DNA from: a virus
Lineage: Duplodnaviria; Heunggongvirae; Uroviricota; Caudoviricetes
Direction: 5' to 3' (one strand)
DNA length: 64,000 bases
Virus record (IMG/VR): IMGVR_UViG_3300045988_150439
The notes beneath the pieces were generated by a model. That model saw only the letters and a list, made by a program, of their open reading frames with translations, was not told the origin of the DNA and did no database searches. Each line of letters starts with the position of its first letter. The first letter of the stretch is position 1. The position numbers and the translations under genes are program-made. Below, piece by piece: positions 1-56,498 of the stretch.

Positions 1-216
1 TGTGCATTATCAAATTGTGTACGGCATATCACCGTACTTGTAATATAGAGGTCATTGTTACTTTTTTCAACAGGCAAATACAAGCAATGATTGCCAATTG
101 TTAACCACAACCTACCATTTTACCTTTACACCGCAGCCGTAGGCATTTAGGCTATATCACATATAAGAAAACAAGTTGTTTCAGACGATAATTATATACG
201 CAAAGGGAACTCTCCA

Positions 217-885
217 ATGACCAAGATCTTTGTGGTTGGCGGCACAAAGGGCGGGCCTGGCAAATCCACCGTTGCCCAGCAAATTGCCGTTTGCCTGAAA
301 GTCAAAAAGAAGAAGAAGGTTTATATCACTGATATAGATATTCAGCGCACGACAACAAGCTGGTGTGAAGACCGTCGACAGAACGAAGATCTTGAGCTGA
401 TTCCTTTTGCATACGTTCAGGATGACATCATTAAGCACCTAAAATCGCTTCAGGGTAGAGCTGAGTTTGTAGTGGTAGATGCTGGTGGCTTCGACTCCGA
501 AATTCAGCGACAAGCGATGCTGATGGCTGACGTTATCATTATCCCGCTGCGTCCTAAGCGTCGTGATTTGAAATCTTTACGTGACATCGATCCTATTATC
601 GACAATGTTCGCAATGTAAACGATAAAGTGAAGGTCCGCGCGGTCATGAACCAGTGCCCGGCTTTGCCATCACAAGTGTCTCGCATTCTGGCGGCTAAAG
701 AGATTGTTGAGACGTTTGGAATCGAGTCTGCGCCAGTCAATCTATATAACCGCAACGTCTATGATGATGCGGAAGAGTCTGGTCGTTCTATCTTTGAAAT
801 GACCGGTAGCGAGCGCGACAAAAAGGCGGAAGCCGAGTTTGAAGAATTTGTAGATTATCTGTTGAGTCTGGAGGAAGAAGAATAA
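217..885 (+). CDS. parA: ParA/MinD-family partition ATPase
   Basis: Deviant Walker A near the N-terminus (VGGTKGGPGKST); 222 aa, typical of small type Ib ParA; followed immediately by a small partner gene. Confidence 0.65.
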   Translation: MTKIFVVGGTKGGPGKSTVAQQIAVCLKVKKKKKVYITDIDIQRTTTSWCEDRRQNEDLELIPFAYVQDDIIKHLKSLQGRAEFVVVDAGGFDSEIQRQAMLMADVIIIPLRPKRRDLKSLRDIDPIIDNVRNVNDKVKVRAVMNQCPALPSQVSRILAAKEIVETFGIESAPVNLYNRNVYDDAEESGRSIFEMTGSERDKKAEAEFEEFVDYLLSLEEEE

Positions 886-1244
886 TGTCCATGAAAATGG
901 GTGACCTAGCAAAGCGCAAAGAGCCTGATGCACCGGCTAAGAACACAACTCCTTTGCGCCAACCAGTCAGACCACAGGGACGCCCGACTCGTGGCAAAGA
1001 GAAAATTAAAAGCCGCACAATGTCACTGGAAGACGAATACTTCGAACTGCTGGAGATGATGAAGTTCATCCCTCGCTTCGAGAAGTTCACTCGTTCTGAC
1101 GTGATTCGAGCAGCCATTTTCCATCTGGCAGAGAAGTCACCGCAGGAAATCGAGGACATCGTGAAGCTTAACGAGGCGATCACAGCTGCCGACGTTACGA
1201 TGCGTACCGATGAAATTAAACGAGAGTTGATGAAGAAAGGTTGA
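885..1244 (+). CDS. small partition partner protein (ParG/RHH-like), putative
   Basis: 119 aa ORF whose start overlaps the parA stop (ATGA); basic N-terminus and helical C-terminus consistent with a centromere-binding partner. No motif-level proof. Confidence 0.35.
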   Translation: MSMKMGDLAKRKEPDAPAKNTTPLRQPVRPQGRPTRGKEKIKSRTMSLEDEYFELLEMMKFIPRFEKFTRSDVIRAAIFHLAEKSPQEIEDIVKLNEAITAADVTMRTDEIKRELMKKG

Positions 1245-1286
1245 TTATATTGGGCGTTTGTTACGCCCAATATATGAATTAAAGGA

Positions 1287-2990
1287 TTGATACTAATGGA
1301 ATCGATAGAATCATTTCTAAAAAATTTTCTAGTTTCAGATCATCGGGTTGCCGTCATAAAAGGAGATTGGGGCGTTGGTAAAACTCATTATTGGAATAGT
1401 TTTTATACTAAGCATTCTGAAGGATTAGATTTTAATGCATATTCGTATGTTTCTTTGTTTGGGGTTAACTCTATTGGTGATATTAAAAAAACTCTTTATC
1501 ATTGTGCCACACCAATTAATGAAAAGAAATATAAAGAACTAATTTTATCTGAAACGGATCGAACTATGATTCGTTATAGAAATGGGTTTTGGGGATGGTT
1601 GAAATACAACTCCTTGTCAAAATTTTTAATACATTTCGGAAAGAACGATTTTTTTGGGTTCAAAACAGATAACCTGCTGTCATCTCTTGAGTATAAATTT
1701 GTTAATAATTATTTGGTTTGTATTGATGATGTTGAAAGAAAAGGTAATTCGCTAGAAGTTAAAGAAATTATGGGGGTAATTGATGAATTAGCAAGAAGAA
1801 AAGGTTGCAAAGTTGTTCTAATTTTAAATGAAGATAATTTACATGATGAAACTGCAAAAAAACAGTTTTTAGAGTACAGAGAAAAAGTAATTGATGTCGA
1901 AATAAAATACGATCCTACGCCTGAGAAGAACTTACGTAAAGTTTTTTATGAAACTGATTCTGATTTTCTTTTGTTAAAAGTCTTAGCAAATGACTTAGGC
2001 ATTAAAAATATCCGTATATTAAATAAAATAAAAACATCTCTGGTTAATCTTAGGAATGAGCTAAGCTTGGCAGAGGATAAGGTTAGAGAAAGTTTTATCA
2101 ATAGATTGGTTCTGTTTTCAGTGGTTTACTATTCTGGTGTTCCAGGTGTTGATTATGCCTTGTTTAAAGAATCAATTAAAAACATACATGTATTTGATTA
2201 CATGTTAGATGATAAAAAGGATGATTCTGTATATTCATTTATTAATAGTCTTGATATTATTTATGAACGAGCGGAAATTGCTTTCGATGATGACATAGAT
2301 TTTTATCTCAAGAATGGTTATCTTTCTACTGAAAGCAATATTCGAGGTATAATAGAAGAAAAAAATAAACAATATAAAGAACACAAGGCTTTATGTGAGG
2401 TTAACAATGTTTGGGATATTTTTAGTGACTCATTCAAGGACAATGAATCTGAGTTTATTTCTAAGATAAAATGTGTAATTAACGACAATCTTTCACACAT
2501 ACCTGTTGCTCACTTCATAGGCTTGATTGATATCTTAAATAGATTGTTGATTGATTGTGATAGTTATATAGAGGCATATGCAGATGCCTTTGTTAGCCAA
2601 GATGATGCTTATACTGCTTTTCGGAATTTGTATGTAGAGATATTTGGTAACGAAAAGTTAGGTCTGCTAATTCAAAAAAAATTGATGGATAAGAAGCCTG
2701 AAGAGACTAATTTAGAGAATGTTTTATACAAAATAATTGAAGGCAAATTTAATCATAGTGACATAGCATATCTTAACAGTTTCTCTGAAGATGATTATTT
2801 AAAGTGGATATTATCCCGCAATCAGGATGCTTTGGATTTAGTGAGAAAGGGGTTGCTCAGATTCAAAAGTATGCAAGAACTAACAGAAGAACAGCAAAAA
2901 ATCACGAATAAAGCAATAGGTGCATTAACGAAACTGGCCTCTAGATCAAGTCTTAACAAACTACGTGTGAGCAGATTGCTTAATAATTAA
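1287..2990 (+). CDS. KAP-family P-loop NTPase
   Basis: Walker A GDWGVGKTHYW near the N-terminus, 567 aa, strongly AT-rich relative to neighbours; domain order matches the KAP NTPase family (PifA-like). Confidence 0.55.
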   Translation: MILMESIESFLKNFLVSDHRVAVIKGDWGVGKTHYWNSFYTKHSEGLDFNAYSYVSLFGVNSIGDIKKTLYHCATPINEKKYKELILSETDRTMIRYRNGFWGWLKYNSLSKFLIHFGKNDFFGFKTDNLLSSLEYKFVNNYLVCIDDVERKGNSLEVKEIMGVIDELARRKGCKVVLILNEDNLHDETAKKQFLEYREKVIDVEIKYDPTPEKNLRKVFYETDSDFLLLKVLANDLGIKNIRILNKIKTSLVNLRNELSLAEDKVRESFINRLVLFSVVYYSGVPGVDYALFKESIKNIHVFDYMLDDKKDDSVYSFINSLDIIYERAEIAFDDDIDFYLKNGYLSTESNIRGIIEEKNKQYKEHKALCEVNNVWDIFSDSFKDNESEFISKIKCVINDNLSHIPVAHFIGLIDILNRLLIDCDSYIEAYADAFVSQDDAYTAFRNLYVEIFGNEKLGLLIQKKLMDKKPEETNLENVLYKIIEGKFNHSDIAYLNSFSEDDYLKWILSRNQDALDLVRKGLLRFKSMQELTEEQQKITNKAIGALTKLASRSSLNKLRVSRLLNN

Positions 2991-2998
2991 GTATTCAT

Positions 2999-3053
2999 GA
3001 CCTGTTTCTGTATATAAATAATAAGTAACTTATTAAATATACGGAAGCAGGTC
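2999..3053. repeat. 55-bp nested palindrome / hairpin directly after the KAP NTPase stop
   Basis: Arms gacctgtttctgtatat / atatacggaagcaggtc flank an AT-rich loop that itself contains the perfect palindrome aataagtAacttatt; a second copy lies at 53263-53324. Confidence 0.55.
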
Positions 3054-3159
3054 TTTCAAAAGATACCCACCAGAACAACTCCCTTCCGTTTCCACTTCCA
3101 AAAACTGCCACCAATCGCTATCATCAGCTCATTGTGATAAGTAAGTAACTACCTACCAG

Positions 3160-3909: not shown

Positions 3910-3952
3910 CTAATACTAGAAAACAATTTGTTTAAAAAACAAAGGAAAGCAC

Positions 3953-5293
3953 ATGACCGAACTTTGCCATACAGGACGCGGGCTGTCCGAAGAGTTTGAT
4001 GAAGATTTCCAGAACAGACTGACGGCATATTTTTGTCGTGATCACGAGTTTCTTACTCGTGCGGGAGATCTGGTTGTGCCTAGCCAATTTGCCAATGCGG
4101 CCAATGCCATATTGGTTAATATGGTTTCGGGCTATTACCGTATGTACAAGAGCGCGCCCTCTTCATCTGCAATTCTGGATATGCTTAAGCGTGCGAAACG
4201 CGATAAGACTATCCGTGAGGAACTATTCGCCGATGTTGTTGCTGCGTTTAAGCGCATCCTTGCAGAAAAATTGTCCGATACCTCGTACATGGTTGACCAG
4301 GTATCAACCTTCGCAAAAAGCGTAGCGTTTGATGATGCTCTGATTAAGGCTGCTGAACTGAAAGAGAAGGGCGACTTTCAGGGGGCGATGGCAATCATGG
4401 CCAAGGTTCAGCAGATTGGATCGAACGAAGCGACCGGAATCTATGACTACTACACCTCAGCAAGTGAGCGACTGAAAGCGCGTGAATATGAGGCCTCAGA
4501 GGAGTATGTGCCAAACAGTATTACAACTGGACTCCCTCTTCTCGATAGGTTGCTGTACCAAAAAGGCTGGGCAAAGCGCGAAATGGTGCTCTTCATGGGG
4601 TTCGCTAAATCCGGTAAATCGACCGCAATGGGTGAGTTTTCCATAAACGCAACGCTTGCTGGCTACAATGTTCTGTATCTCTCGCTGGAGGTTCACACCA
4701 CCATTTTATCCGACCGTTTTGACGCAAGATTGTCGGAGACAGAAATGTCCAAGCTGGTGGAACGGCGCGATGAGGTTCATCGTAAGTTGGCAGAGTTGGG
4801 AGCCACGAAGGGGATTGGTAGTTTGTGGGTGGTTGAGCGTCCGTCAGGAAGTATATCACCGGCAGATCTGGATCGTATGCTCAACAGCATGAAAGCCAAT
4901 GGCATGGTGCCTGACATGGTTGTTGTCGACTACGCAGATTTGATGCGTGCCAGTTATGACCTTCGTGATGATCGCGCCAACATTCGTAGTATCTACACCG
5001 ATTTGCGTGCTCTTTATGACAAGCATAACGTTGCTGGGATCACGGCATCGCAGACAAACCGTGAAGGTGGCGCGTCAGAAGTTGCCACAATGATGCACGC
5101 TGCCGACAACATCGAAAAAGTACGTATTGCTGACCTGGTAATAACGATCAACAAAACCGAAGAAGAAGAAGCGAAAGGAGAGGCTCGTCTCTACTTTGCT
5201 GGTTCACGTAACCAGCAGGGAGGGATCAGCATTCGCGTTAAACAAAACCTCGAACAAATGCGCTTCATTGAGCGAATCTTAGACGTTACCTAA
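3953..5293 (+). CDS. DnaB/gp41-like replicative DNA helicase
   Basis: C-terminal RecA-fold with Walker A GFAKSGKST and Walker B-like MVVVDYADLM; sits directly upstream of a primase-like gene. Confidence 0.6.
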   Translation: MTELCHTGRGLSEEFDEDFQNRLTAYFCRDHEFLTRAGDLVVPSQFANAANAILVNMVSGYYRMYKSAPSSSAILDMLKRAKRDKTIREELFADVVAAFKRILAEKLSDTSYMVDQVSTFAKSVAFDDALIKAAELKEKGDFQGAMAIMAKVQQIGSNEATGIYDYYTSASERLKAREYEASEEYVPNSITTGLPLLDRLLYQKGWAKREMVLFMGFAKSGKSTAMGEFSINATLAGYNVLYLSLEVHTTILSDRFDARLSETEMSKLVERRDEVHRKLAELGATKGIGSLWVVERPSGSISPADLDRMLNSMKANGMVPDMVVVDYADLMRASYDLRDDRANIRSIYTDLRALYDKHNVAGITASQTNREGGASEVATMMHAADNIEKVRIADLVITINKTEEEEAKGEARLYFAGSRNQQGGISIRVKQNLEQMRFIERILDVT

Positions 5294-5302: not shown

Positions 5303-6553
5303 GTGGAGAACACCTCCACGCTTGATTCATTTGTGAAACAACTTTTCTTTTGCCAAACCACAAAAGAAAAACACATGAGCCTTTATGTTATATCAACATT
5401 TAGGTTGGTCACAATATTGCCTATTAAAAGTGGAATTATCGTGAGCGAGCTGAAAGAGCTAATTACCGAATTAGATTTTGAACAATGGTTGGACACTGAA
5501 GGTATCGTTTATCGACGTGGAGGCGTGAGTGCTCGCGGTCGTGAAGTGAATATCAAGGAGTGTCCGGTATGCGGCAGCTCCAACTGGAAGGTATATTTCA
5601 ATCTGACCAGTGGTGTGGGTAAATGTTTCGCTGGCGACCATCCTGAAGAAATACAATTTAATAAGCTGGTGTTCCTCAAGCACTACAGCGGTAAATCACG
5701 GCGACAGTTCGAAGAATATGTGCAGAACGCCCTTCTTTCTCAGGGTTGGGCACCAAAGAAAGAAGAGATAGTGCTTGCAAGCACAGTCGAGTTAGAGGGG
5801 CCACTTGCACTCCCTCGTCATTACGAACTTCCTATAGATGGCCGTCTTCCAGACTATCTGGTTGAACGAAACATATCGCCTGAAATGGCAAAGTATTTTG
5901 ACCTACGATACTGCGTCGAAGGTAAGCACGCCTATGTAGATCCGTATACAGATCAGGTTAAAGGACAGATATTCGATATGCGAATACTGATACCGGTTTA
6001 CGATCTGGATGGGGTAATGAAGACATTTCAGGGACGAGACATTACCGGTACAGCAGAACGCCGCTACCTCTTTCCTATGCAGCTTCCAGCTTCAGGTAAA
6101 TTTCTCTACAACGGCCATAATGCAGTCGGCAAACAGACTGTAGTTGTCTGTGAGGGTGCGTTCGATGTTATGGGGGTCAAACGAGCTATTTTCGACGAAG
6201 AAACATTACGTGATTACGTGGAGCCAATAGGAACGTTCGGGATGCATCTATCTGGCAACACCACTCAGGATGCAGAAGATCAGTTGGGCGCGTTCCTGAC
6301 GCTCAAAGCGCGTGGATTACGTAATGTGATCATGATGTGGGATAGTGAAAAGCAAGCTATACGTAATACGATGGCCGCAGCCAGGCGACTGACCAGTATT
6401 GGTCTTAATGTCAAAGTGGCGTGTTTGGGCGAGGAAGGACTCGACCCGGGCGATGCAACGCCAGAGCAAATCATCAAAGCCTATTATCGGGCAAAACCGT
6501 ATACCAAGCAGTTGGAGTTACAAAGCAAGGTTTTGGGCATTAAGGCTCTATGA
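5303..6553 (+). CDS. DNA primase (zinc-binding plus TOPRIM), putative
   Basis: CPVCGSSNW...GKCFAG cysteine cluster followed by a TOPRIM-like VVVCEGAFDVMG acidic motif; adjacent to the helicase. Confidence 0.5.
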   Translation: MENTSTLDSFVKQLFFCQTTKEKHMSLYVISTFRLVTILPIKSGIIVSELKELITELDFEQWLDTEGIVYRRGGVSARGREVNIKECPVCGSSNWKVYFNLTSGVGKCFAGDHPEEIQFNKLVFLKHYSGKSRRQFEEYVQNALLSQGWAPKKEEIVLASTVELEGPLALPRHYELPIDGRLPDYLVERNISPEMAKYFDLRYCVEGKHAYVDPYTDQVKGQIFDMRILIPVYDLDGVMKTFQGRDITGTAERRYLFPMQLPASGKFLYNGHNAVGKQTVVVCEGAFDVMGVKRAIFDEETLRDYVEPIGTFGMHLSGNTTQDAEDQLGAFLTLKARGLRNVIMMWDSEKQAIRNTMAAARRLTSIGLNVKVACLGEEGLDPGDATPEQIIKAYYRAKPYTKQLELQSKVLGIKAL

Positions 6554-6631
6554 TAACAATCACCTTTAAAATAAGTAGATGATTACTTATCTTTCTGTGA
6601 GAATACTTTCATCTGTTAGCTAGGAGTTGGT

Positions 6632-7408
6632 ATGAAAGACGAAATTCAGAAATTAGCCTGCGACATCATTGATAAAACTGGTTTAGAAATCAGCGAGAGC
6701 AATCGGCTAGACATCATTGAAAAAGCCGTAAAAACAGCAATGGATCATATCGCCACTCGTTTGGTCGAGATCCCGCTACCAGGGCTACCTTATCTGAAAG
6801 TTGAGTTACACGTATGGGGTGAACCTTCTTGTTCACGGCGTTCTGCATTAGTTGTTTTTATTAGCAAAGAAAACCCGCTCAGTCTTAAAGTGCAGGTTGG
6901 TGCATGGATGGATGGAAAAGTGATCTACACAAATACCGTTTTTTGTCTTTCAAACGACGAAACTATTGAAGCGGCCATTCAAGAAGCAGTTCTAGCAATG
7001 CGCAGCAGCGGTTTGATGAAGAATAACTACGAAGAGTACTTGCGTTCGATAAGTGGTGAAAAGACATTATCTCTGAAAGCAGATTTCGTTACCCCGAAAA
7101 ATCTGTTGGAAGTCTTGCTTAATAAAGGGGCTAATGATGCCGTAAATGTAATCAGAGAGAGTGAGTATGCGTCTCTTTGCGACATGTGCAAAAGCCAGTT
7201 GGATCTGGTGCATATCGTTATTGATGCTGGGAAGGCATGTGATGGCGTAATGGCGGAATTTGCTTGGAAGGTGGTCAGGATTGCTAACGAATTACCGATG
7301 ATAGAGCAAGAGGCCAAATCATACGCCACCAATCATGTCACAGAGCTTCTTGTCCCCTATCGCTTAGAAAGCAATCAGCGCAAGATGGTTAGCTGGGGAA
7401 GTTGGTAA
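6632..7408 (+). CDS. hypothetical protein
   Basis: 258 aa ORF with RBS-like aggag upstream; no recognised motif. Confidence 0.45.
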   Translation: MKDEIQKLACDIIDKTGLEISESNRLDIIEKAVKTAMDHIATRLVEIPLPGLPYLKVELHVWGEPSCSRRSALVVFISKENPLSLKVQVGAWMDGKVIYTNTVFCLSNDETIEAAIQEAVLAMRSSGLMKNNYEEYLRSISGEKTLSLKADFVTPKNLLEVLLNKGANDAVNVIRESEYASLCDMCKSQLDLVHIVIDAGKACDGVMAEFAWKVVRIANELPMIEQEAKSYATNHVTELLVPYRLESNQRKMVSWGSW

Positions 7409-7463
7409 TCTCTCCGCGCGTCGTTTTTTACGCAAATAACGATAGGTAAGTACAAGATTATTT

Positions 7464-7946
7464 ATGGCGGTAGTTGTGAAAGCTGATTTGTCAAAAATCC
7501 CTTCTATTTCAGGAAATAACGGTTATTCACTTCGTTGTGAGGAAGTAAAGATAAACGGTGAGTCGGCATATTGCAGCTATTCCGTTTGCCAGCACACCAT
7601 TCTTGCCTTCAAAGAAAACCGTCTTCCTCGAACTTCTTTCCAGTCGTGCGCAACCGCTATTAAAGCAGGCAAATGCAAGGCGTTAAAAATGATGGTTGAA
7701 GAGATTCGTAAAGGAGAATCTCTGTATTTCGAAGATATGACCGCGCTCATTAAGGAGGTTGAAGAACGGAATAAACAAGCCAGAACTATAAAACGAAAAC
7801 GTGACAGTGTAACGATTAATAGCATGGTTAAGAAGAGCACCACATCACAAACAGCGATCACTGACGTGTATGCGGCGTTGCTTGAAGAAACAACAAAAGA
7901 AACACATGAGCAAATCGATCAACATATGGAGGCAAAACAACAATGA
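7464..7946 (+). CDS. hypothetical protein (Cys-rich)
   Basis: 160 aa ORF; start preceded by the gataggtaagtac motif; stop overlaps the ligase start. Confidence 0.4.
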   Translation: MAVVVKADLSKIPSISGNNGYSLRCEEVKINGESAYCSYSVCQHTILAFKENRLPRTSFQSCATAIKAGKCKALKMMVEEIRKGESLYFEDMTALIKEVEERNKQARTIKRKRDSVTINSMVKKSTTSQTAITDVYAALLEETTKETHEQIDQHMEAKQQ

Positions 7947-10854: not shown

Positions 10855-10929
10855 GATGGTGTAGCTCAGCGGTAGAGCAGTTGGCTGTTAACCAACTGGT
10901 CGGTGGTTCGAATCCACCCACCATCGCCA
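10855..10929 (+). tRNA. tRNA-Asn (anticodon GTT)
   Basis: Hand-folded cloverleaf: acceptor gatggtg/caccatc, D-arm gctcagcggtagagc, anticodon loop ctGTTaa, T-arm ggtggttcgaatccacc, encoded CCA. Confidence 0.8.
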
Positions 10930-10932
10930 ATG

Positions 10933-11007
10933 CCGGTTTAGCTCAGTTGGTAGAGCACCTGCCTTGTAAGCAGGATGTCAGCGGTTCGATCCCGTTAACC
11001 GGCACCA
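10933..11007 (+). tRNA. tRNA-Thr (anticodon TGT)
   Basis: Acceptor gccggtt/aaccggc, D-arm gctcagttggtagagc, anticodon stem cctgc/gcagg with loop ctTGTaa, T-loop ttcgatc, encoded CCA. Confidence 0.75.
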
Positions 11008-11026
11008 ACACAACAGGTAAGAGCAT

Positions 11027-11100
11027 TGGGCGAATCGGCGATACTGACCCACAAGCCCGTAAATCGATAGAGTCAGACCAGTGCTCTTACCGTTGTGAGG
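11027..11100 (+). repeat. long-range hairpin element ending in cttaccgttgtga
   Basis: gtaagagcattgg pairs with ccagtgctcttac (one G-U) enclosing about 48 nt; not foldable as a tRNA. Confidence 0.4.
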
Positions 11101-11156
11101 AAGTGCAGCTCTTTGAAGCAACCAGAAGATAAGCATCTGGCTTCACAACACAACGA

Positions 11157-11219
11157 TAAGATCATTACGGTTAATCGTCGTTCATGTGCACAATGACTGG
11201 TCGAAAGGTAGTGATCTTA
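11157..11219 (+). repeat. long-range hairpin element ending in cttaccgttgtga
   Basis: taagatcattac pairs with gtagtgatctta (one G-U); same 3' tail as the element at 11027-11100. Confidence 0.4.
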
Positions 11220-11327
11220 CCGTTGTGATGAATGCACAGGCTGATGTGCCGCAACTACAGTAGTGCGCGCTTTGCGGGGCTTGCTACAACCCTGTGTCGG
11301 AGTTCAGCACCGACCATCACAATAGCT

Positions 11328-11414
11328 GGAGAGTAGGGAGCATGGTGCTCAAGCGGTCTTGAAAACCGTCCCATTGCGCAAGCGATGATGGTTCGATTCC
11401 ATTACTCTCCGCCA
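11328..11414 (+). tRNA. tRNA-Ser (anticodon TGA), long variable arm
   Basis: 87 nt; acceptor ggagagt/actctcc, anticodon loop ctTGAaa, long extra arm, T-loop ttcgatt, encoded CCA. Confidence 0.7.
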
Positions 11415-13945: not shown

Positions 13946-14187
13946 CGATCACTATCTACGGACGAGATAACTGCTCATACTGCAAACGTGCGGTCGAGCT
14001 GGCGAAGCAACTAAAGGGACATGGCTACGGTGATTATGAGTACATCGACATCACCACTGCCGGTATCGACAAGAAAAAACTAAGTGAAATTGTTGGTAAA
14101 CCGGTAGAGACTATCCCCCAGGTACTGATCGATGGCCAACCGATTGGCGGATACACAGAATTTGCTGCTTTTGCGAGCACTCTGTAA
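13942..14187 (+). CDS. glutaredoxin (NrdH/NrdC-like redoxin)
   Basis: 81 aa with CSYC active-site motif in the thioredoxin-fold position (YGRDNCSYCKRA). Confidence 0.65.
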   Translation: MTITIYGRDNCSYCKRAVELAKQLKGHGYGDYEYIDITTAGIDKKKLSEIVGKPVETIPQVLIDGQPIGGYTEFAAFASTL

Positions 14188-15386: not shown

Positions 15387-15484
15387 ACTAAAAATGAGTT
15401 ACTTTGACTCTTGATCCTATAAGAATCTATGCCTAATATACTGTTTACTTATACAGTGTATCGGCGTAACTCGGTGATTGTCAT

Positions 15485-16588
15485 ATGAAAAATAGCTTTG
15501 ACAGAGCACGCGCAGCGGAGAACACCTCAAAAGAGGCGATTGAGTATCTCGAAAGAGCATCTCAAATGCAGGCCGTTATGATCTCGCAGGTTAGCAATGA
15601 CATGAGATTCTCAGACGCATTCATGTTATTCACTCGCTTATCTCTGCTAATAACAAGACGTCGGCCAGAGATCGCTGTTCACTGTATTTTGATACATGTT
15701 TTGCCGCACATTGCTGATGTAAAAGTAAGTGACATTAATAGGTTCATGGTGAACCAACTGGTCAACCCACTAATACTGGATGGCAAAATTGTTATGGGCC
15801 GCCGCGTTTTCTCTCTGATGAAGCAGTTCCTTAGCTGGTGCGCCTTCCAGGGGATGATAGACGTGTCACCGTTAAACGATATGTCACTTAACAAAGTTGC
15901 CGGTGGCGCAAAGCCCACACCTCGCGAGCGGAAGCTGACCGACGCAGAGGTATGGGTGTTCTGGAATATATGGGACTACTTCAATGTGTGTGCTGGTACA
16001 AAATGGGCGGCAAGGCTATGTCTTGTATCCGCAAGACGACCTGATGAAGTACTGCGGGCTAAAAAAAGTGAGTTCAATCTTAAGCGTGGGGTTTGGAATC
16101 AAGGCAAAAGAAACAAGTCAGCACGTGAGCATTCGCTGCCTTTAAGCACATTAATGCGCACATGCATTGAAGAGTTGTTCGAATACGGTAAAGATAGCCA
16201 GTGGCTCGTTCCTTCGAATAAAAAAATCGGGAAAGACCTTCCTATGTCTAAAGTGGCAATAGCCCAGGCATTACGTCGTATTCTGGAACGACCAGAACTG
16301 ATGGAGCTTGAGCCATTTACACCCCGAGATTTGCGCCGTACTGCGCGTAGTTACTTCCCAGCATTAGGCATAAGCCAGGAGGTATCACGTAAAATCATGA
16401 ACCACAGTCTTGAGGGGATAGATCGGGTCTACGACCGGCACGATTATATGGACGAGATGCGAGACGCCTTAGAAAGTTTCTCGACGTACATCGCATCAAT
16501 CGTAGAGCAACCGGATTTAGACGAAATTGACCACAAATTTAAGGGAGATCGTCTATCAACAGAGCTTATTCGTGTAAATTTTTCATAG
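15485..16588 (+). CDS. int: tyrosine recombinase / phage-type integrase
   Basis: C-terminal catalytic region with ARLCLVSARRPDEV (Arg box), TPRDLRRTARSY and NHSLEGIDRVYDRHDY (His/Tyr box); true start may be internal to the listed ORF. Confidence 0.65.
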   Translation: MKNSFDRARAAENTSKEAIEYLERASQMQAVMISQVSNDMRFSDAFMLFTRLSLLITRRRPEIAVHCILIHVLPHIADVKVSDINRFMVNQLVNPLILDGKIVMGRRVFSLMKQFLSWCAFQGMIDVSPLNDMSLNKVAGGAKPTPRERKLTDAEVWVFWNIWDYFNVCAGTKWAARLCLVSARRPDEVLRAKKSEFNLKRGVWNQGKRNKSAREHSLPLSTLMRTCIEELFEYGKDSQWLVPSNKKIGKDLPMSKVAIAQALRRILERPELMELEPFTPRDLRRTARSYFPALGISQEVSRKIMNHSLEGIDRVYDRHDYMDEMRDALESFSTYIASIVEQPDLDEIDHKFKGDRLSTELIRVNFS

Positions 16589-16969
16589 AGACTTTATGGC
16601 CTCAACAACCTTTTGTGATGCGCCTTTCTCTTTACCGAATCGCTCGTTATATGCAGCAAGAACCTGTTTTTCGTCCTCGTTAAGAGGAGCAGTGCCTTCT
16701 TTGTATAAAAATGCTGCGAGTTCGGGTTGACGTTCTTCCAGCACCATCATCATAAGACGACTTGGCTCAATACCCAGTGCCAGCGCCAGCGGACGAACCT
16801 TATCGATAGGCAAAGGAATTTTGCCGCTTTTAATTAAAGAAAGGTTGTTGGCGTTTTTATACCCAATTGTTTTGGCTATCTGGGCCTGGCTCATAGGTGA
16901 GGATTCAATCAACCCTGCGATAAAAGCAGCGTAGCGACTTTCTATAAATTCAATCTTGTTATCAGACAT
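16583..16969 (-). CDS. XRE-family helix-turn-helix transcriptional regulator (repressor-like)
   Basis: HTH segment MSQAQIAKTIGYKNANNLSLIKSGK; same orientation as the recombinase gene's opposite strand, with a 250-bp AT-rich control region upstream of it. Confidence 0.6.
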   Translation of the reverse strand: MSDNKIEFIESRYAAFIAGLIESSPMSQAQIAKTIGYKNANNLSLIKSGKIPLPIDKVRPLALALGIEPSRLMMMVLEERQPELAAFLYKEGTAPLNEDEKQVLAAYNERFGKEKGASQKVVEAIKSL

Positions 16970-17433: not shown

Positions 17434-17531
17434 CCCCTCTTCTCCCTGCGCGAATGGCTTAGTTCCCTGTTCGCGCAGTGCTACATTAAACAAACTAGTA
17501 AATAATTTGTTTTCATAACAAAGGATTAGCC

Positions 17532-19640
17532 ATGTCTAAAAAACGTTCCATCAAAGAGGTTCAGGACTTCCGTGACAGTGTAAAACGAGTAGTCGCTCTC
17601 CTTTCAGGCAAAAACATCCCTGTTGCAGAACGAGGGGACGACGCTTATGTACGCTATAACGATGATGGAGAGCCAATTCTCGTAAACATCCCATCAATCC
17701 CGGATAACGCAACACCGGCATTGATGAATGCTGTGCGCGGATTTCTCGATCATGAGGTTGCTCACATTTTGTTTACCGATATTCGTGTGTCCAACAAAAT
17801 GAGAGAAAAAGGACGCGTTCCTTCCTGGTCGCTATGGAATGCCTTAGAAGACGTGTTCATCGAGCGAAAAATGGGTCAGGTCTTTAACGGAACAAGACGT
17901 AATCTGATGGCAACTCAGCGCCTTATAATCGAAAAAGTCTTTAAACCAAAGGCTTCAGAGGCTATTGCTTATTGTGGCAAAGATCAGCGCGCGCTTTTTC
18001 TAAACTTCTTTCTCTGTCCGGTTGTAAGAGCCTGGGATGGCCAAGCACCGTTCGTAGATTTCATGGATGAATATTGGCCTGTCATTGAGAAACCAATTTC
18101 ATTATTAAAAGAACATGGTATCGATGTGGCCATGCGTAACATGTCTTGCACCGAGGATTGTGTAAAGGTGGCTGCGACCATAGCTAAGATCCTCAAAGAC
18201 ACTGAAAGTGAAAGCAAAGGTAAGGAGTCAGCTCCGGGAAAAACTTCCGATCCTTCAGACGCTGACCAGACGGATGCCTCTGGAGAAAATAATGAAGATA
18301 ACGAAGATCATGAGACACCCTCAGCGTTAGATAATCACAAATCTATCAAATCAGAATCACACAGTAAGCACAAACATGATAATAACGACAGTGATGATTC
18401 AGATAATTCTGAATCATCAGAAACAATATTCAATGATACAGAAAATGATAAAGAGGTATCAGATTCTGATGCTTCTGATAACGCGGCGTCAGAATCATTA
18501 ACCGCTGACCACGAAAAAAGAAAAACGACAGAAGACGGCTCTTCAGATATTCCAACTCCGTCAAAAATGAGTCTGGAAGAGGCTTTAGAGGTGCTGGATA
18601 GCATAGAAGATGAAGTCGGAGGCATGACAGAAGATGCTCTATCCGAAACGATTAAAAGCGAGTTAACAGAAAGCTCGAAAAGCGAATACAGGCCATACAA
18701 TCGCTCATACGACTTCATCGGCTCGATTGATCAGGCAGAAGCCCATATCAAACGGCTTATTAAAACATTCTCCGATATTGATTTAGGTGGATATCCAATC
18801 AGCCGTTATCGCATCGTTCCTGAAGGCAACCAACTCTTCGACAAATATATTGAAAAGCACCTTTCGTCAGGTGTTTCGTCGACGCTGGCAAAAGACCTGG
18901 AACGTGCAATAGCAAGCAGAAACAGAGTTCAGTTTATACCTGGCCAGCGTCGGGGGCGCATTCATGGTTCAAGTATCTACAGATTAACAATGAATGATGA
19001 TCGCGTGTTTCGTAAAAAAGAAGAATCTAAAGCCGTTAACGCCTGTGTTCAACAAGTGATTGATTTATCGGGTTCAATGAGTGGCGAAACGATAAAACTA
19101 GCTCTTGCAAGTGCATATACCATCGCCGATGCACTTGATCGAATAAATGTTCCCAACATTATCACCGGCTTCACTACATTTGGCAATCATATGGCAGCAG
19201 GAGAACTTAAGGCTATCAAATATGAGTTCTCTCGCTTTGAATCTTTAATGCTACCTATCATCAAAAATTGGAATGAAAAAGCAAATTCTCGCGAAGTTCG
19301 CTCACGTATGGGGTGCGTAGGCTACACATTCCCACTTCTTAATAACGTGGATGGTGAAAGCATAGCCAGCCTTGCATCGTTATTTTCCGGTCGCTTGGAG
19401 GACAGGAAGATCATGCTTGTTCTGAGCGATGGCGAGCCGTGGGCTGTTGGGAGAGGTTTTGACGCTCATTTGCGTTCGGTTGCGAAGCAAATTGAAACGC
19501 AGACTGACATTGATTTGATGGCAATTGGCATCATGACTGACGCACCGGAGAGATTTTACTCAAATCATGCCCTGGTAACGAGCGTTGATAGTCTTGGTTC
19601 ATCTGTAGTTACTGAACTATCTCGTATCATTTTGAAGTAA
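17532..19640 (+). CDS. von Willebrand factor A domain protein (CobT-like), with acidic low-complexity linker
   Basis: 702 aa; MIDAS motif DLSGSMSG in the C-terminal vWA domain; long D/E/S-rich middle region; paired with the downstream AAA ATPase. Confidence 0.55.
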   Translation: MSKKRSIKEVQDFRDSVKRVVALLSGKNIPVAERGDDAYVRYNDDGEPILVNIPSIPDNATPALMNAVRGFLDHEVAHILFTDIRVSNKMREKGRVPSWSLWNALEDVFIERKMGQVFNGTRRNLMATQRLIIEKVFKPKASEAIAYCGKDQRALFLNFFLCPVVRAWDGQAPFVDFMDEYWPVIEKPISLLKEHGIDVAMRNMSCTEDCVKVAATIAKILKDTESESKGKESAPGKTSDPSDADQTDASGENNEDNEDHETPSALDNHKSIKSESHSKHKHDNNDSDDSDNSESSETIFNDTENDKEVSDSDASDNAASESLTADHEKRKTTEDGSSDIPTPSKMSLEEALEVLDSIEDEVGGMTEDALSETIKSELTESSKSEYRPYNRSYDFIGSIDQAEAHIKRLIKTFSDIDLGGYPISRYRIVPEGNQLFDKYIEKHLSSGVSSTLAKDLERAIASRNRVQFIPGQRRGRIHGSSIYRLTMNDDRVFRKKEESKAVNACVQQVIDLSGSMSGETIKLALASAYTIADALDRINVPNIITGFTTFGNHMAAGELKAIKYEFSRFESLMLPIIKNWNEKANSREVRSRMGCVGYTFPLLNNVDGESIASLASLFSGRLEDRKIMLVLSDGEPWAVGRGFDAHLRSVAKQIETQTDIDLMAIGIMTDAPERFYSNHALVTSVDSLGSSVVTELSRIILK

Positions 19641-24700: not shown

Positions 24701-24973
24701 AAAGAATTATGGCGCTTGTTGAGGAAGTCACTCCTCTTACGCACTTTGTTTTGCCATGCCGGCAGTTAGCTTCTGCCTTTGACTATTCATGCGGCAACCC
24801 CGCATTTCGCCACAATGGGCAATTCACTTTTATGGAATAAACTGGCCGTTGTGTCGATTTAATTAGCATGGCCTTACCATGCTAATTTATTCAACTTGTA
24901 AAATCCTACAAATCTATCCACTCAGGCTTACACCGTCTTCGTTATTGTAGAAATGAGGATCATCAGCGTTGAA

Positions 24974-25189
24974 TCAGCTTAGAGCAACGACATTTGCTGC
25001 TGCTGGGCCTTTAGCCCCATTCTCGATAGAGAATTCGACCTGCTGGCCTTCTTCCAAAGTGCGGAAATTATTACTCTGAATTGCCGAAAAATGTACAAAA
25101 ACATCTTTACTGCCATCAGCAGGAGAAATAAAGCCAAAGCCTTTATCAGAGTTAAACCATTTTACTAAACCAGTCATTTTATTAGACAT
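24974..25189 (-). CDS. CspA-family cold-shock protein (CspB/CspG/CspI-like)
   Basis: [38 protein letters not shown]... matches E. coli cold-shock proteins almost residue for residue; start taken at the internal ATG (25189) with RBS; long 5' leader upstream. Confidence 0.85.
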
Positions 25190-25518
25190 AGATACTACCT
25201 TCTTAATTTTGTGAGCCACATAGTGCGGCGAGAATTTGATCTGTATAGATTGGGACTTACTTAGGCACTTAAGGAGGAGACTCACGAAGAAGGGAAATCA
25301 GAAGATAACACTGAACTGAGACTGCTTTACTAAAACTGCTTACATAAGGTCTGTCTTGCAAACCAACGATGCTATTAACGCATACCCCTTCTTTTCATGC
25401 AACCTTTATTTTTCAAAGATAACTAATTTTTGTCACCATTGGTTTAGTAAACGTTAACGAACCAGACGATGCCAGACACCTTTACAGAGAACAGATGCCC
25501 GCCAATTGGCGGGCATCA

Positions 25519-26082
25519 TTATGCGCATTTCGCAATATCTTTGCGGCGTTTAATCAGTTTCTCCGCAATTTGCTCTATTTCGTTGAAATCTTTCGAGACG
25601 CTGTTTCGAAGCGCCAGATTCCATTTACTCAAAGTTCGGGCATTTTGGACAATTTGATCGCCCTCTTTAAGTCGTCCGTTATTCATGAGCCATTCAGCCA
25701 CATCAGCCCAATCCCAGAGAGGAGACTGGCCTTTTATGCGTTGTACAGGGCAAGGGAAGTCGCCGCTTCCGCGCTTACCGTCTTTGAGCAACGCCACTGC
25801 CTGGCGAGACAGGTCTGTCAGTTCCGCGATATCGCTTAAGCCCACAAGAGCCGAGTCGACGGATTCAACAATTGCACCGATACCGGCTGATTCAATATTG
25901 TCGACCGCAGATGCGATAGCTGCATCAAGTGATTGTGCTTCGCGGTCAAATTCTACATAGACGGAGTTTCCATATGCGCAAATTAGCGCATCGTCACAGC
26001 CGTTTTGGTACAGCGCGTCTTCCAGTCCTTCCGTCTCATACGATACGCCTGAGAGCGTCAGAGTGAAGTTATAAAGCGCCAT
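25519..26082 (-). CDS. hypothetical protein with probable C-terminal HTH
   Basis: 187 aa from the ATG at 26082 (aaggaaa RBS); LSDIAELTDLSRQAVALL resembles an HTH; downstream partner of the small Cys/His gene. Confidence 0.4.
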   Translation of the reverse strand: MALYNFTLTLSGVSYETEGLEDALYQNGCDDALICAYGNSVYVEFDREAQSLDAAIASAVDNIESAGIGAIVESVDSALVGLSDIAELTDLSRQAVALLKDGKRGSGDFPCPVQRIKGQSPLWDWADVAEWLMNNGRLKEGDQIVQNARTLSKWNLALRNSVSKDFNEIEQIAEKLIKRRKDIAKCA

Positions 26083-31843: not shown

Positions 31844-31905
31844 TATGTTGAAAATGTATAAGCACTTACTTATCATTAGCACACAATAACCACATAGGAA
31901 AACAC

Positions 31906-32106
31906 ATGATCAAACTCTATCTTATGGCAGTAGTTACAGGTCTATCTGTAGTTTTCATCTACTGTTTGCTGGTTCCGTCGCTGATCTCTACTAAAAGCGA
32001 CATTGCCGTAATGCTTGGAATCATCGTTGCTTTTGGCGCTCCTGTGATCGGGTTTATTGCAGGTCGTAAGTTTCTAAAGTCACTCATCAATTCGAAGGAG
32101 AAGTAA
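31906..32106 (+). CDS. small membrane protein (possible NfeD-like partner of the SPFH protein)
   Basis: 66 aa with two hydrophobic segments; ends 4 bp before the SPFH gene. Confidence 0.4.
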   Translation: MIKLYLMAVVTGLSVVFIYCLLVPSLISTKSDIAVMLGIIVAFGAPVIGFIAGRKFLKSLINSKEK

Positions 32107-32956: not shown

Positions 32957-32983
32957 AGGCGTCCAGTTGGACGCCTTTTTTAT
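32957..32983 (+). terminator. Rho-independent terminator, near-identical to the one after recA
   Basis: ggcgtcc-agtt-ggacgcc followed by six T. Confidence 0.75.
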
Positions 32984-33031
32984 CGCAATTATCTTATTAA
33001 GAAAATAATTTGTTTAAAAGGATAAGAAAAC

Positions 33032-33457: not shown

Positions 33458-33512
33458 TCGCCTATTCGTAACTAACAAAATAAGTAAACACTAACCACAA
33501 AAGGAAAAACAC

Positions 33513-33788
33513 ATGAGAGTTTTAGTTCGAATCGTTACCAGCACTGTCTATGACGTGTTTCCGCTTTTTATGGTCAAAGCCGATGGCCTTAACGACGAAG
33601 AAACTGACGCGCTTATCCAGCGTATTCTCGTTGAATATACAGGTCATGACGCTGATTCAGTGATGGTTGATGATGATGGTGTTTGTTGGCATAACGGCAA
33701 CTGTTGGTACGTAGAAGAGACTCAACAAATCAGTGATGAAGATGCCGCACATCTTGAGCGTATTTTAAGCATCAGCACTTTTGAGTGA
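33513..33788 (+). CDS. hypothetical protein
   Basis: 91 aa; start context aaaaggaaaaacacATG. Confidence 0.4.
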   Translation: MRVLVRIVTSTVYDVFPLFMVKADGLNDEETDALIQRILVEYTGHDADSVMVDDDGVCWHNGNCWYVEETQQISDEDAAHLERILSISTFE

Positions 33789-37483: not shown

Positions 37484-37737
37484 CCCTCCAGATCGTATAT
37501 TGGCGTAGATAGAATCTACGCCCCCTCAAAATAGCTCTCATAGCGTTCTACAGTGATCCTGTCTTATTTTTAGTCATACAGACAAGCAAAGTTGCGCCAC
37601 GATAAATAGGTATATACTTACTTATAAATTTTGTATATTAAGGCGCTCGTTTCATTCCTAACATACCGTTATGCATAGTTGTTTACCTTCTCATTGCTCT
37701 TAAAATTTGTATCAAAATAACCACAAAGGAAAAACAC

Positions 37738-38823
37738 ATGACTTTGCCATACGGCGTCATTTCTGACTGCCACTACCACAAATGGGATGCGTTCTCCACG
37801 ACGAACGCTGAGGGGCTTAACTCCAGACTTGAAATACAGTTGGAAGCAACGAAAGAAGCAGCCATCGCCATGAAGAAGGCCGGTTGTAAGTACATGTTGG
37901 TTGCCGGTGATACATTTCACGTCCGAGGAACTGTGTCCCCTTCTGTTTTGCATTACGTAACTGAAACGTACAAGTGGATTATCAACGAGCTTGATCTGAC
38001 AGTAGTAATGCTGGCCGGTAATCACGATCTTGAAACCAACGATTCAGTATATAGCGCCAACGCAGCAGCATCGCTGAGTTCTATCGGCGTGGTAATCGTA
38101 TGTGGCAAGCGCCCACACTCAATAAAAATTGGTGATGTGACTGTCCACCTGATTAGCTGGCGTAACAATCATGCGGAGCTTATCAGCGATCTGAAAGCAT
38201 TACGTAAGAGCGTAGAAGGTGATAATCATGACGTTGTTATCCATACATCCATTAACAAAGCCATTCCAACAATGCCTGACGTCGGTATCGATGCGCAGGA
38301 GTTAAAGGATATCGGCTTTCGTCTCGTGCTTAGTGGGCATTACCACAACCACAAAGAGGTCATTCCTGGAGTTATCAGTGTCGGTGCACTGACTCATCAA
38401 AATTGGGGAGATGTTGGATCTCTGGCTGGCTACATGATCGTAAACCCGGACGGCAGTTTCAGTCACTACGAAACCAGTGCGCCTAAATTCATTAACCTGG
38501 AAGATGATGTTGCTGATGACCAAATTCGCGGCAACTACGTGCGTTTCCGCGCCGTAATTGAGAACGATGAAGAAGGCATTAAGTACCAGAACATCCTCAA
38601 AACAATGGGTGCAAAAGGTGTCGTGTGCAACTTCATCCGTAAGTCATCAATGATGGAAGGGACAGCCAGCACAACAGAAACCAGCAAAATCGATAGCCTG
38701 GGAGAGTCGGTATCTGCTTATTGCAAGATTGTCCACGATACTGACGGCGGATTTGATCTGAGCAAGTTGGATATTTTGTGTCAGGAAATCCTCACCGAAG
38801 CGGAGAGTTCGGAGGCTGTGTGA
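37738..38823 (+). CDS. sbcD: SbcD/Mre11-family nuclease
   Basis: Calcineurin-like phosphoesterase motifs (VAGDTFH, LAGNHD, GHYH); immediately upstream of the SbcC/Rad50-like gene. Confidence 0.7.
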   Translation: MTLPYGVISDCHYHKWDAFSTTNAEGLNSRLEIQLEATKEAAIAMKKAGCKYMLVAGDTFHVRGTVSPSVLHYVTETYKWIINELDLTVVMLAGNHDLETNDSVYSANAAASLSSIGVVIVCGKRPHSIKIGDVTVHLISWRNNHAELISDLKALRKSVEGDNHDVVIHTSINKAIPTMPDVGIDAQELKDIGFRLVLSGHYHNHKEVIPGVISVGALTHQNWGDVGSLAGYMIVNPDGSFSHYETSAPKFINLEDDVADDQIRGNYVRFRAVIENDEEGIKYQNILKTMGAKGVVCNFIRKSSMMEGTASTTETSKIDSLGESVSAYCKIVHDTDGGFDLSKLDILCQEILTEAESSEAV

Positions 38824-44675: not shown

Positions 44676-44703
44676 GGTGGGGTATATCCCCACCTTATCT
44701 TTG
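44676..44703 (+). terminator. terminator-like hairpin after nrdA
   Basis: ggtgggg-tatat-ccccacc followed by ttatcttt. Confidence 0.55.
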
Positions 44704-44770
44704 ATTTGTAAGCCTTGTTTAAACACATAAGATAACAACTTGTTTAAACACATCAAAAAAGGAAAAACAC

Positions 44771-53241: not shown

Positions 53242-53262
53242 TTTGCTCTGGCGTCTGTAATT

Positions 53263-55475: not shown

Positions 55476-55488
55476 GGCGGTTGTATGA
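55270..55488 (+). CDS. small membrane-anchored protein
   Basis: ATG with agagg RBS; hydrophobic N-terminus MAYVLIIVSLATIAV then Thr/Pro-rich segment. Confidence 0.3.
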   Translation: MAYVLIIVSLATIAVPAGQSLLMPGSSITTPPSTTITTTPVERPVTLDGMTVDAIPQVHPVTQDHAVTKAVV

Positions 55489-55682
55489 ACTGGTTTTCAA
55501 ATCACTTTGGAAAAACTTGGCTGGCGATTCTGGCTTTCATAGCTCTCATGGCCGCCGGTTGGGTATCGAACATTGTAAAACTCGTTTGCTCTGGTGATCT
55601 CCAGTTTCAGGCTGGTATGACCTTGGCTCGTGTTGTTGGGATTTTTGTTTTTCCAGTCGGTTCGGTACTTGGTTATTTCTGA
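55485..55682 (+). CDS. small membrane protein
   Basis: 65 aa with two hydrophobic segments. Confidence 0.35.
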   Translation: MNWFSNHFGKTWLAILAFIALMAAGWVSNIVKLVCSGDLQFQAGMTLARVVGIFVFPVGSVLGYF

Positions 55683-55775
55683 CGGTTGTTAGTGCATATG
55701 CATTGACCGTCTTTTCGTAAGCAATTCATGTAACTAGAAAACAACTTGTTTTAACAAATAATAAAAGGAAAGCAC

Positions 55776-56201
55776 ATGTTAGGTTTATTCAAAAAGAAAA
55801 CTCGTAAAGCTGTTATCGAGGTCAAAAAAATGGAGAACCGAGATGCGGTTGAAGCCACCGTGTGGGGCGCGTACATGATCTCCTATGCCGATGGCACATG
55901 CGACGCAAAGGAAATTTCCATTCTTGAGAAAACAATTGCAGCTCTGCCTGCGTTTTCTCCGTTTGCTGGTGAGATTGCCCAAATGAGCGCCAATATCCGT
56001 GCTCAATACGAAGCCTCACCGCGCCGCGCTAATGCCCAGGCTTTACGTGAGCTGGCTGATGTGGCCGGGACTAATGATGCAGTAGATGTACTGTGTCTGT
56101 GCCTTGATATTGCCGACCAAGACGGTATTGGCGAACAAGAAGAGCTGGCCCTGAAAAAGATCGCACAGGCGCTTCAGTTGTCACTGGATGCTTATCTCTA
56201 A
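55776..56201 (+). CDS. TerB-like domain protein, putative
   Basis: 141 aa all-helical; segments AYMISYADGTCDAKEISILE and LCLCLDIADQDGIGEQEELALKKIA resemble the TerB/DjlA N-terminal domain pattern. Confidence 0.4.
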   Translation: MLGLFKKKTRKAVIEVKKMENRDAVEATVWGAYMISYADGTCDAKEISILEKTIAALPAFSPFAGEIAQMSANIRAQYEASPRRANAQALRELADVAGTNDAVDVLCLCLDIADQDGIGEQEELALKKIAQALQLSLDAYL

Positions 56202-56359
56202 TGCTTGAGAGATTCCGGCTTGTGACCGTCATTGCTCTTCTGGTGATGGCGGTGTTGGTGGATTTTACGGGAAAGATGATGTCTGTCATTTCTGATGGCG
56301 TCCTCATTGGTCTGGCGATCTACTTCGCTTATCCGCTAGTCCGTAAAGCAACGTGTTAA
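56201..56359 (+). CDS. small membrane protein (52 aa)
   Basis: Below the track cutoff; ATG overlaps the previous stop (TAATG); hydrophobic throughout. Confidence 0.3.
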   Translation: MLERFRLVTVIALLVMAVLVDFTGKMMSVISDGVLIGLAIYFAYPLVRKATC

Positions 56360-56360
56360 T

Positions 56361-56389
56361 GACAAGGGCCAAATGGCCCTTGTGTTTCG
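56361..56389 (+). terminator. Rho-independent terminator
   Basis: acaagggcc-aaat-ggcccttgt followed by gtttcg. Confidence 0.6.
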
Positions 56390-56498
56390 TTGACCGAAAT
56401 AGAGAGTTTGCACCTTTACGTTTAGCTTGCTCCCCTTTTATGCCACATCACAATAAAGCCAATAAGAAAACAACTTGTTTAAGCATTAGGAAAAACAC

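Follow-up and report, generated by a model that had tools for sequence, protein, structure and literature searches.

A 13-bp palindrome recurs in the gaps between genes of IMGVR_UViG_3300045988_150439, a 64,000-nt stretch of viral DNA (Caudoviricetes; hereafter the window), and we propose that it serves a regulon of SSU5-type phage-plasmids as their common DNA operator, recognized by a putative symmetric repressor that the element itself would encode. Judging from sequence comparison, we give this reading a probability of roughly 0.55. The regulon is most likely undescribed but conventional in kind; in the searchable literature, we found neither this motif nor the SSU5 regulatory circuit described.

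By megablast, the window belongs to an SSU5-type phage-plasmid of Escherichia coli, with 97-98% identity to phage Cyrano (pLF82), 78-81% identity to Salmonella phage SSU5, and weaker matches to Klebsiella phage-plasmids. Following the Cyrano annotation, it leads from parA, by way of genes for replication, recombination, and nucleotide metabolism, to an accessory region, with nearly all genes on the + strand. This plasmid group is common in E. coli, Klebsiella, Salmonella, and Yersinia: among the SSU5-type phage-plasmids in PLSDB, a FljA-like gene is found on 835 plasmids and a ParG-like gene on 797. Members include pHCM2 of Salmonella Typhi, pMT1 of Yersinia pestis, and numerous plasmids of Klebsiella and E. 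coli that in some cases confer resistance genes on their hosts.

The dyad is over-represented and intergenic

An earlier note, made from the letters of this DNA, had described a recurrent AACAA-N-TTGTT palindrome placed 20-35 nt upstream of start codons. The enrichment is real. Exact copies of AACAANTTGTT lie at 170, 3922, 44734, 55740, and 56469 (n=5, compared to 0.21 expected), a count that 0/100 shuffles reached. The 13-mer AAACAANTTGTTT, allowing at most 1 mismatch, occurs at 169, 3921, 17500, 33003, 44733, 55739, 56468, and 61009 (n=8), and the 15-mer GAAAACAANTTGTTT, at up to 2 mismatches, yields 13 strand-hits, spread over 8 loci, compared to 1.26 strand-hits expected. All eight dyads are intergenic, falling in gaps between Cyrano-annotated genes. 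The eighth, AAATAAATTGTTT at 61009-61021, lies beyond the range that the earlier note covered. Two of the copies that the note had listed are imperfect: the one before 17532 (GTAAATAATTTGTTT), which it had flagged as weak, and the one before 33032 (GAAAATAATTTGTTT), which it had not.

The start codons named in the note are ATG in every case, and the 15-mer ends 16-35 nt short of the ATG, a slightly wider range than had been proposed. Spacing to the start codon is not fixed, as had been suggested, since the dyad centre lies anywhere from 18 to 47 nt away; it is the spacing to the -10 element that is fixed instead.

The core of the motif is a perfect 6-N-6 dyad, AAACAA-N-TTGTTT, which with its flanks becomes the symmetric 17-mer GAAAACAA-N-TTGTTTTC. 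Sites fall into two classes according to those flanks. Class A sites read GA-AAACAAnTTGTTT-A(A/C) and are the ones centred 18-47 nt 5′ of a start codon. Class B sites read TT-AAACAAnTTGTTT-TC, often follow a GC-rich hairpin, and are centred 62-96 nt 5′ of the next start. The mirrored flanks of the two classes combine to a 17-bp symmetric consensus, GAAAACAAnTTGTTTTC. The window sites and the elements beside them are as follows.

167..181, + strand: class A dyad GAAAACAAGTTGTTT, an exact match, centred 41 nt before the parA start (217)
3919..3933, + strand: class A dyad GAAAACAATTTGTTT before the DnaB-like helicase gene (3953), with a -10-like TAATAC at 3911-3916
17479-17487, + strand: extended -10 TGcTACATT, ending 19 nt before the centre of the 17498 dyad
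17498..17512, + strand: weaker class A dyad GTAAATAATTTGTTT before the cobT-like gene (17532)
32957-32981: terminator-like hairpin with a T-run, immediately 5′ of the 33001 dyad
33001..33015, + strand: class A dyad GAAAATAATTTGTTT before the DUF7238 gene (33032)
44706-44711 and 44728-44733: possible nrdB promoter, TTGTAA and TAAGAT separated by 16 nt, overlapping the left arm of the 44731 dyad
44731..44745, + strand: class A dyad GATAACAACTTGTTT between nrdA and nrdB (start 44771), with a hairpin at 44677-44693
55737..55751, + strand: class A dyad GAAAACAACTTGTTT before the TerB/TciA-like gene (55776); ortholog in Klebsiella pJN2-26 at 17795
56449-56454: -10-like CACAAT, ending 20 nt before the centre of the 56466 dyad
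56466..56480, + strand: class A dyad GAAAACAACTTGTTT before a gene for a 189-aa protein (56499)
61007..61023, + strand: class B dyad TTAAATAAATTGTTTTC, directly 3′ of a hairpin at 60988-61008, with an ATG at 61077
61038-61046: extended -10 TGTGAAAAT, ending 31 nt after the class B dyad centre
61058-61065: half-site GAAAACAA, 51 nt after the first arm of the 61007 dyad

In the window, the 61007 cassette would drive only a 15-codon open reading frame (ORF; 61077-61124). The equivalent cassette in SSU5 precedes a gene for an HD-domain (ppGpp hydrolase-like) protein; in the window, replacement or truncation has apparently altered the gene behind it.

Dyads occupy two set positions relative to promoter-like elements

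We compared promoter spacing across five elements, at distinct sites of which 41 belong to class A and 16 to class B, scoring as -10-like any hexamer with A at position 2, T at position 6, and at least 4/6 matches. For class A, such a hexamer ends 19-21 nt upstream of the dyad centre at 23/41 sites (exactly 20 nt at 16), and 18 of the 23 carry a TG extension. For class B, it ends 31 nt downstream of the centre at 12/16 sites, 11 of them with TG. Taking the start of transcription as 7 nt past the hexamer, the dyad would be centred at about +14 in class A and about -38 in class B, both relative to predicted start sites. Paired dyads 51 bp apart are found in SSU5, Cyrano, and an Enterobacter wuhouensis element. 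The window sites that follow this geometry are 17498, 56466, and 61009. A sigma-28 promoter was also considered and rejected: on comparing GCCGATAA with GCCAATAA by eye, we saw no matching -35 element.

The class B position allows another reading, in which the dyad is an activator site and a protein at about -38 substitutes for a missing -35 contact, class II style, to time a class of phage genes. Class B sites do sit beside promoters with poor -35 hexamers, and genes that are silent in the lysogen must switch on after induction. Most dyads, however, belong to class A; at about +14, where repressors typically bind, a site is ill placed for activation, and promoters with a TG-extended -10 need no activator. 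We regard an activator site as improbable.

The dyad is conserved across SSU5-type elements

In relatives from Salmonella, Klebsiella, Enterobacter, and Yersinia, the dyad recurs at orthologous and additional positions, with 14-19 copies in each stretch sequenced. At no more than 1 mismatch, SSU5 carries 20 dyads compared to about 0.3 expected, including those at the parA, dnaB, cobT, and nrdB orthologs and many in the 80-95 kb accessory region. Klebsiella pJN2-26 has 14 dyads in 49 kb, Cyrano 16 in 94 kb, the Enterobacter wuhouensis element 10 (1.4 expected), and the distant Klebsiella plasmid pfekpn2511-2 14 in 40 kb. A pattern scan of IMG/VR returned 120 stretches with matches, and the 87 of 120 that were listed include contigs of 100-111 kb.

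Individual sites can be followed from one element to another. Aligning the regions upstream of dnaB and parA in the window with their counterparts in SSU5 and pCAVP366 shows an invariant dyad and an invariant ribosome-binding site amid diverged sequence; the dnaB dyad stands out as a footprint across all three, and the parA dyad is identical in SSU5 and retained in pCAVP366 despite diverged flanks. The SSU5 ortholog of the weaker cobT-like site, at 42729, is a perfect dyad. The 33001 dyad has orthologs in SSU5 (at 56848) and pMT1, the nrdB dyad in SSU5 (at 70219) and pJN2-26 (at 7460-7490), and the 56466 dyad in SSU5 (at 81745) and pJN2-26 (at 18510). The 61007 class B cassette is the same in SSU5 at 85602 and in Cyrano.

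SSU5 also has a pair of dyads 25 bp apart before terS. More generally, one dyad, or two with this 25-bp spacing, can be seen ahead of the late (terS) operon in SSU5 (56-133; L005), pJN2-26 (38628-38682), and pMT1 (14019-14056). In the terS leader, a GC hairpin and its T-run come next, immediately 5′ of the ribosome-binding site, which points to a leader terminator and perhaps to control of the late genes by antitermination. Separately, a dyad followed by GAAAACAA-like repeats occurs within 500-800 bp that hold no annotated gene, an arrangement conserved in three elements, and could mark a non-coding RNA or another cis site:

90740-90800, SSU5 record: gene-free dyad stretch
25869-25930, pJN2-26: gene-free dyad stretch
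6606-6660, third element (L129): gene-free dyad stretch

In pW18-2-b of Moellerella wisconsensis, a syntenic Morganellaceae phage-plasmid, we found no dyad regulon. Only the left arm (ATAAGAAAACAA) and two direct ATAACAAGGC repeats remain upstream of its parA, and a search of this element for a replacement palindrome revealed none that was over-represented.

Conservation of this kind might also arise if the dyad were a passenger in a terminator-promoter-ribosome-binding-site cassette copied by recombination, like T4 PeSL, or a conserved site for a host protein. As in T4, a hairpin and promoter unit is repeated before small accessory ORFs, where many cassettes share about 90 nt (hairpin, CCTTTTC, TGnGATAAT, CCAaCAAG, dyad, and Shine-Dalgarno sequence), and the same dyad is present across several host genera. 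Yet information content is highest on the dyad and not on the rest of the cassette, and the core-gene sites at dnaB, parA, nrdB, and cobT keep the dyad without the remaining cassette. A mobile cassette describes how the dyad spread but not why the dyad is its most conserved part. As for a host factor, the dyad is not known to correspond to the site of an enterobacterial regulator; LexA was the one scanned for. We consider both versions of this explanation very improbable.

The dyad is a probable duplex-DNA site

The earlier note had left two possibilities side by side, an operator overlapping promoters and a translational control element. The two arms of the dyad are equally conserved, and variants in one arm mirror those in the other. 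Compensatory changes were present at 0/27 two-mismatch sites, with no covariation; six window leaders folded no better than shuffles (z -0.9 to +1.0); and no Rfam family matched the dyad leaders. On these three results, we rejected an RNA hairpin or terminator. The translational alternative gained no positive support from them, and class B sites moreover lie outside the downstream transcript. Because the arms are equal, covariation is absent, leaders fold no better than shuffles, the distance to the -10 is fixed, and class B lies outside the transcript, we favour a duplex-DNA site for a putative symmetric protein. The operator proposal is accordingly the one that we retain as the favoured reading, on the strength of the set positions at about +14 and about -38, the footprint in diverged intergenic DNA, and the symmetry.

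An RNA-level reading nonetheless had to be considered, since FljA, whose family is represented in these elements, has been described as blocking translation of fliC mRNA (PMC2652032). Under this alternative, the class A dyad at the 5′ end of the leader would be bound as RNA by the FljA-family protein, repressing translation and destabilizing some 20 mRNAs, the effect that Salmonella FljA reportedly has on fliC mRNA. A PF03614 (FljA family) protein is encoded by every dyad-bearing relative that we examined (Cyrano, SSU5, pJN2-26, the relative L131, pfekpn2511-2, and pMT1). In the phage collection, this family is restricted to the SSU5 type; it is found on the 835 plasmids noted above. Class A dyads do lie in leaders near the ribosome-binding site, in the motif an A-rich tract leads into a U-rich one, and the dyad-free Moellerella element has a FljA-like protein that is just 25% identical. 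Against this, class B dyads lie upstream of their promoter; the distance to the start codon varies while that to the -10 is fixed; and neither exact two-fold symmetry nor mirrored GA/TC flanks are needed for single-strand RNA binding. The dyad is also unchanged where the FljA-like protein is only 34% identical.

The parallel with the fliC leader is one of family and position: a homologous protein is encoded by the element, and FljA is reported to target the leader near the ribosome-binding site (PMC2652032). T4 RegA is a general analogue of such leader control. However, the likeness between the fliC leader and the cassette, striking by eye, failed a profile hidden Markov model test (Salmonella fliC -0.4 bits, E 80; no match in E. 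coli fliC), and symmetry and class B misfit a target confined to leader RNA. A test for covariation between the motif and the FljA-like protein was uninformative, the motif being unchanged from 87% down to 34% protein identity. We think it unlikely that the dyad acts through FljA-mediated translational repression, and equally so that, as leader RNA or as promoter-opened DNA, it is the FljA-family target of a genome-wide Hfq-fold repressor regulon. If that were true, FljA, the repressor in flagellar phase variation, would be a phage-plasmid regulon protein in domesticated form.

A proposed operator and the evidence that weighs on it

Under the operator reading, the dyad would adjoin host sigma-70 promoters of the TG-extended -10 type at its two set positions. 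The class A operator would be centred at about +14, within the first 20 nt of the leader, and the class B operator at about -38, over the -35/UP region; some promoters would carry both, separated by 51 bp. Bound to the dyad, a symmetric protein of the element, probably a dimer, may block RNA polymerase binding or escape, placing the par operon, dnaB, the cobT-like gene, nrdB, and many small accessory genes under a single control, to which the late terS operon leader would be subject in relatives. Start sites, binding, direction of effect, and the identity of the protein are all features that we infer from sequence.

Published RNA sequencing of a Cyrano lysogen places the genes that follow dyads near background (dnaB 21, nrdB 13, cobT 8; median about 7), with the ParG-like gene at 89 (PMC9928086). 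In the same data, RNA steps up slightly across the dnaB gap, from 6 to 21, and across the nrdB gap (PMC9928086). These small step-ups are consistent with weak repressed promoters at the two gaps.

Several observations weigh against the operator reading. Canonical -10 spacing is present at only 2/7 window class A sites (17498 and 56466), and at the parA, dnaB, nrdB, and tciA sites the promoter geometry differs or is unclear. Because the cassettes are paralogous, part of the constancy in their spacing comes from common descent, so it is not independent evidence. Nor does the dyad fit a simple lysogeny master repressor, since parA, which is needed in the plasmid state, carries one. Two further points concern the candidate protein that we place first, the ParG-like protein described below: it has no significant fold or family match and its structure model is weak, and the Moellerella element, with no dyad regulon, keeps a 45%-identical version in which the predicted DNA-reading strand is nearly the same.

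Candidate binding proteins

Our first candidate for the dyad-binding protein is encoded directly after the small ParA:

885..1244, + strand: ParG-like protein, 119 aa, candidate trans-acting factor

It has a disordered basic N-terminus and an invariant block, IKSRTMSxEDE ... FTRSDVIRAAI, as in ParG-type adaptors; it is at least 90% identical in 736/797 plasmids; its Cyrano ortholog is expressed in the lysogen; and its own operon is preceded by a dyad. Outside SSU5-type elements we found no homologs, all of them being in the same plasmid group, and the one outlier locus is truncated by IS5. The use of pMT1 as a natural knock-out of this protein was abandoned, because pMT1 diverged too recently and has lost its accessory region.

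Such an adaptor raises the alternative that the dyads form a dispersed centromere, serving mainly as partition sites for the ParG-like protein, as in N15, with secondary effects on promoters. The gene order, a small ParA and then a small basic protein, is that of type Ib systems, one dyad lies just upstream of parA, and the adaptor is highly conserved, with an invariant putative DNA-reading block. N15 provides a precedent, with four separate palindromic inverted-repeat centromere sites (PMC7205306). But the dyads lie at two set promoter positions and are not randomly spread, and upstream of parA there is the single dyad at 167-181 with no array of adjacent repeats, which would be normal for a type Ib centromere. 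In pMT1 the adaptor gave no match while dyads were kept, although this divergence is too recent to decide the matter; in Moellerella, conversely, the adaptor is kept and the dyads are missing. We consider a primary centromere role doubtful.

The FljA-family protein, encoded outside the window, is full-length (PF03614, E 1e-80 in Cyrano) with orthologs in SSU5, pJN2-26, and others. These elements share a conserved minus-strand block in which it is the sole annotated regulator, its family is confined among phage records to SSU5-type elements, and modelling shows it as a predicted tandem Hfq-like protein. The third possibility is a pair of ParB_N proteins that relatives encode upstream of the late operon, also outside the window; in these relatives, we found no dyad at the promoter of the ParB_N genes themselves. 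The Moellerella contrast, in which the ParG-like protein is retained and the FljA-like protein is only 25% identical, does not decide among the candidates.

Comparison with known regulatory systems

A close parallel to the proposed regulon is that of P1 C1, in which one element-encoded repressor acts on many operators spread over a plasmid prophage of about 100 kb, controlling replication, accessory, and late-control operons. Both would place scattered operators of a plasmid prophage under one repressor. The P1 operator, however, is the asymmetric 17-mer ATTGCTCTAATAAATTT, whereas the dyad is symmetric; we identified no C1 homolog for this element, and the consensus ATTGCTCTAATAAATTT gave 0 matches in the window at up to 3 mismatches.

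In IncP-1 plasmids (RK2/RP4), class I OB operators of KorB lie at -39/-40, close to the class B position of about -38. OB (TTTAGCGGCTAAA) is a 13-bp perfect palindrome of 6-N-6 form that occurs at many plasmid promoters and is bound by a partition-family global repressor (PMC11790492). The dyad resembles it in form, and relatives encode two ParB_N proteins. Unlike KorB, which is partnered by KorA acting at OA (GTTTAGCTAAAC), the system here has no known KorA-type partner, and its ParB_N genes lack a dyad at their own promoter. Matches to OB as TTTAGCSGCTAAA in the window, at up to 2 mismatches, are at chance level (3 compared to 1.5 expected), all inside genes. With C1 operators absent and OB at chance level, we rejected membership of either family by sequence.

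Type Ib partition adaptors, such as ParG of TP228 and omega of pSM19035, share with the present system a small ParA, a basic protein with a flexible tail, and a site at their own operon, and omega regulates several operons via repeated short sites. They differ in that structure modelling and family searches gave the 885-1244 product no significant match to a ribbon-helix-helix fold. A further difference is that the dyads here are single, whereas type Ib sites are arrays of tetramer or heptad repeats (PMC3130281). N15 likewise scatters separate palindromic sites over a phage-plasmid (PMC7205306); these number four, have a different sequence (GTGCGACC-N-GGTCGCAC), and are served by a type Ia SopB, in contrast to the roughly 20 sites at fixed promoter positions in SSU5-type elements. 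By analogy, the dispersed operator regulon would work like those of P1 C1 and IncP, and it may relate to dual-role partition adaptors or to the N15 centromeres.

Other features of the window

The AAAGGAAAAACACATG translation-initiation context that the earlier note had recognized is also real: GGAAAVCACATG, allowing at most 1 mismatch, has 9 matches compared to 1.17 expected, all on the + strand, at the starts 3953, 5375, 31906, 33513, 37738, 44771, 55776, 56499, and 59873. To say that it usually follows the palindrome is an overstatement, as this is so for only 4/7 start-proximal palindromes (3953, 44771, 55776, and 56499).

3944..3955, + strand: ribosome-binding context GGAAAVCACATG, an example; other copies end at 5377, 31908, 33515, 37740, 44773, 55778, 56501, and 59875

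A second promoter-like cassette, (A)ATAACCACA-AAGGAAAAACACATG, is present at 5350-5377, 31880-31908, 33490-33515, and 37714-37740. It resembles the dyad cassette (gATAATAACaCCAaCAAG...) but has no palindrome, and it is probably what the earlier note had counted as its first motif. At 5375, the ATG shares its frame with the primase ORF and lies 63 nt 5′ of the position that matches the annotated primase start of Cyrano.

Three transfer RNA genes (Asn, Thr, and Ser) at 10855-11414 are about 86% identical to the transfer RNA clusters of the P7 and D6 phage-plasmids. A full-length Rfam match to the cspA thermoregulator (184 bits) lies on the minus strand at 24949-25367, indicating that a cold-shock protein gene with a long 5′ untranslated region is carried there. 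A good LexA-box-like sequence, TACTGTTTACTTATACAGTG, at 15439-15458 lies 27 nt 5′ of the integrase start (15485), and the integrase, together with a helix-turn-helix repressor gene (16583-16969, minus strand), makes up a module that is missing from SSU5. Ciprofloxacin induces Cyrano.

Implications for SSU5-type phage-plasmids

If the proposed regulon is correct, one conserved operator beside about 20 promoters would offer a handle on how these phage-plasmids restrain their lytic, replication, and accessory genes, and the dyad set would provide ready sites for finding the switch protein.

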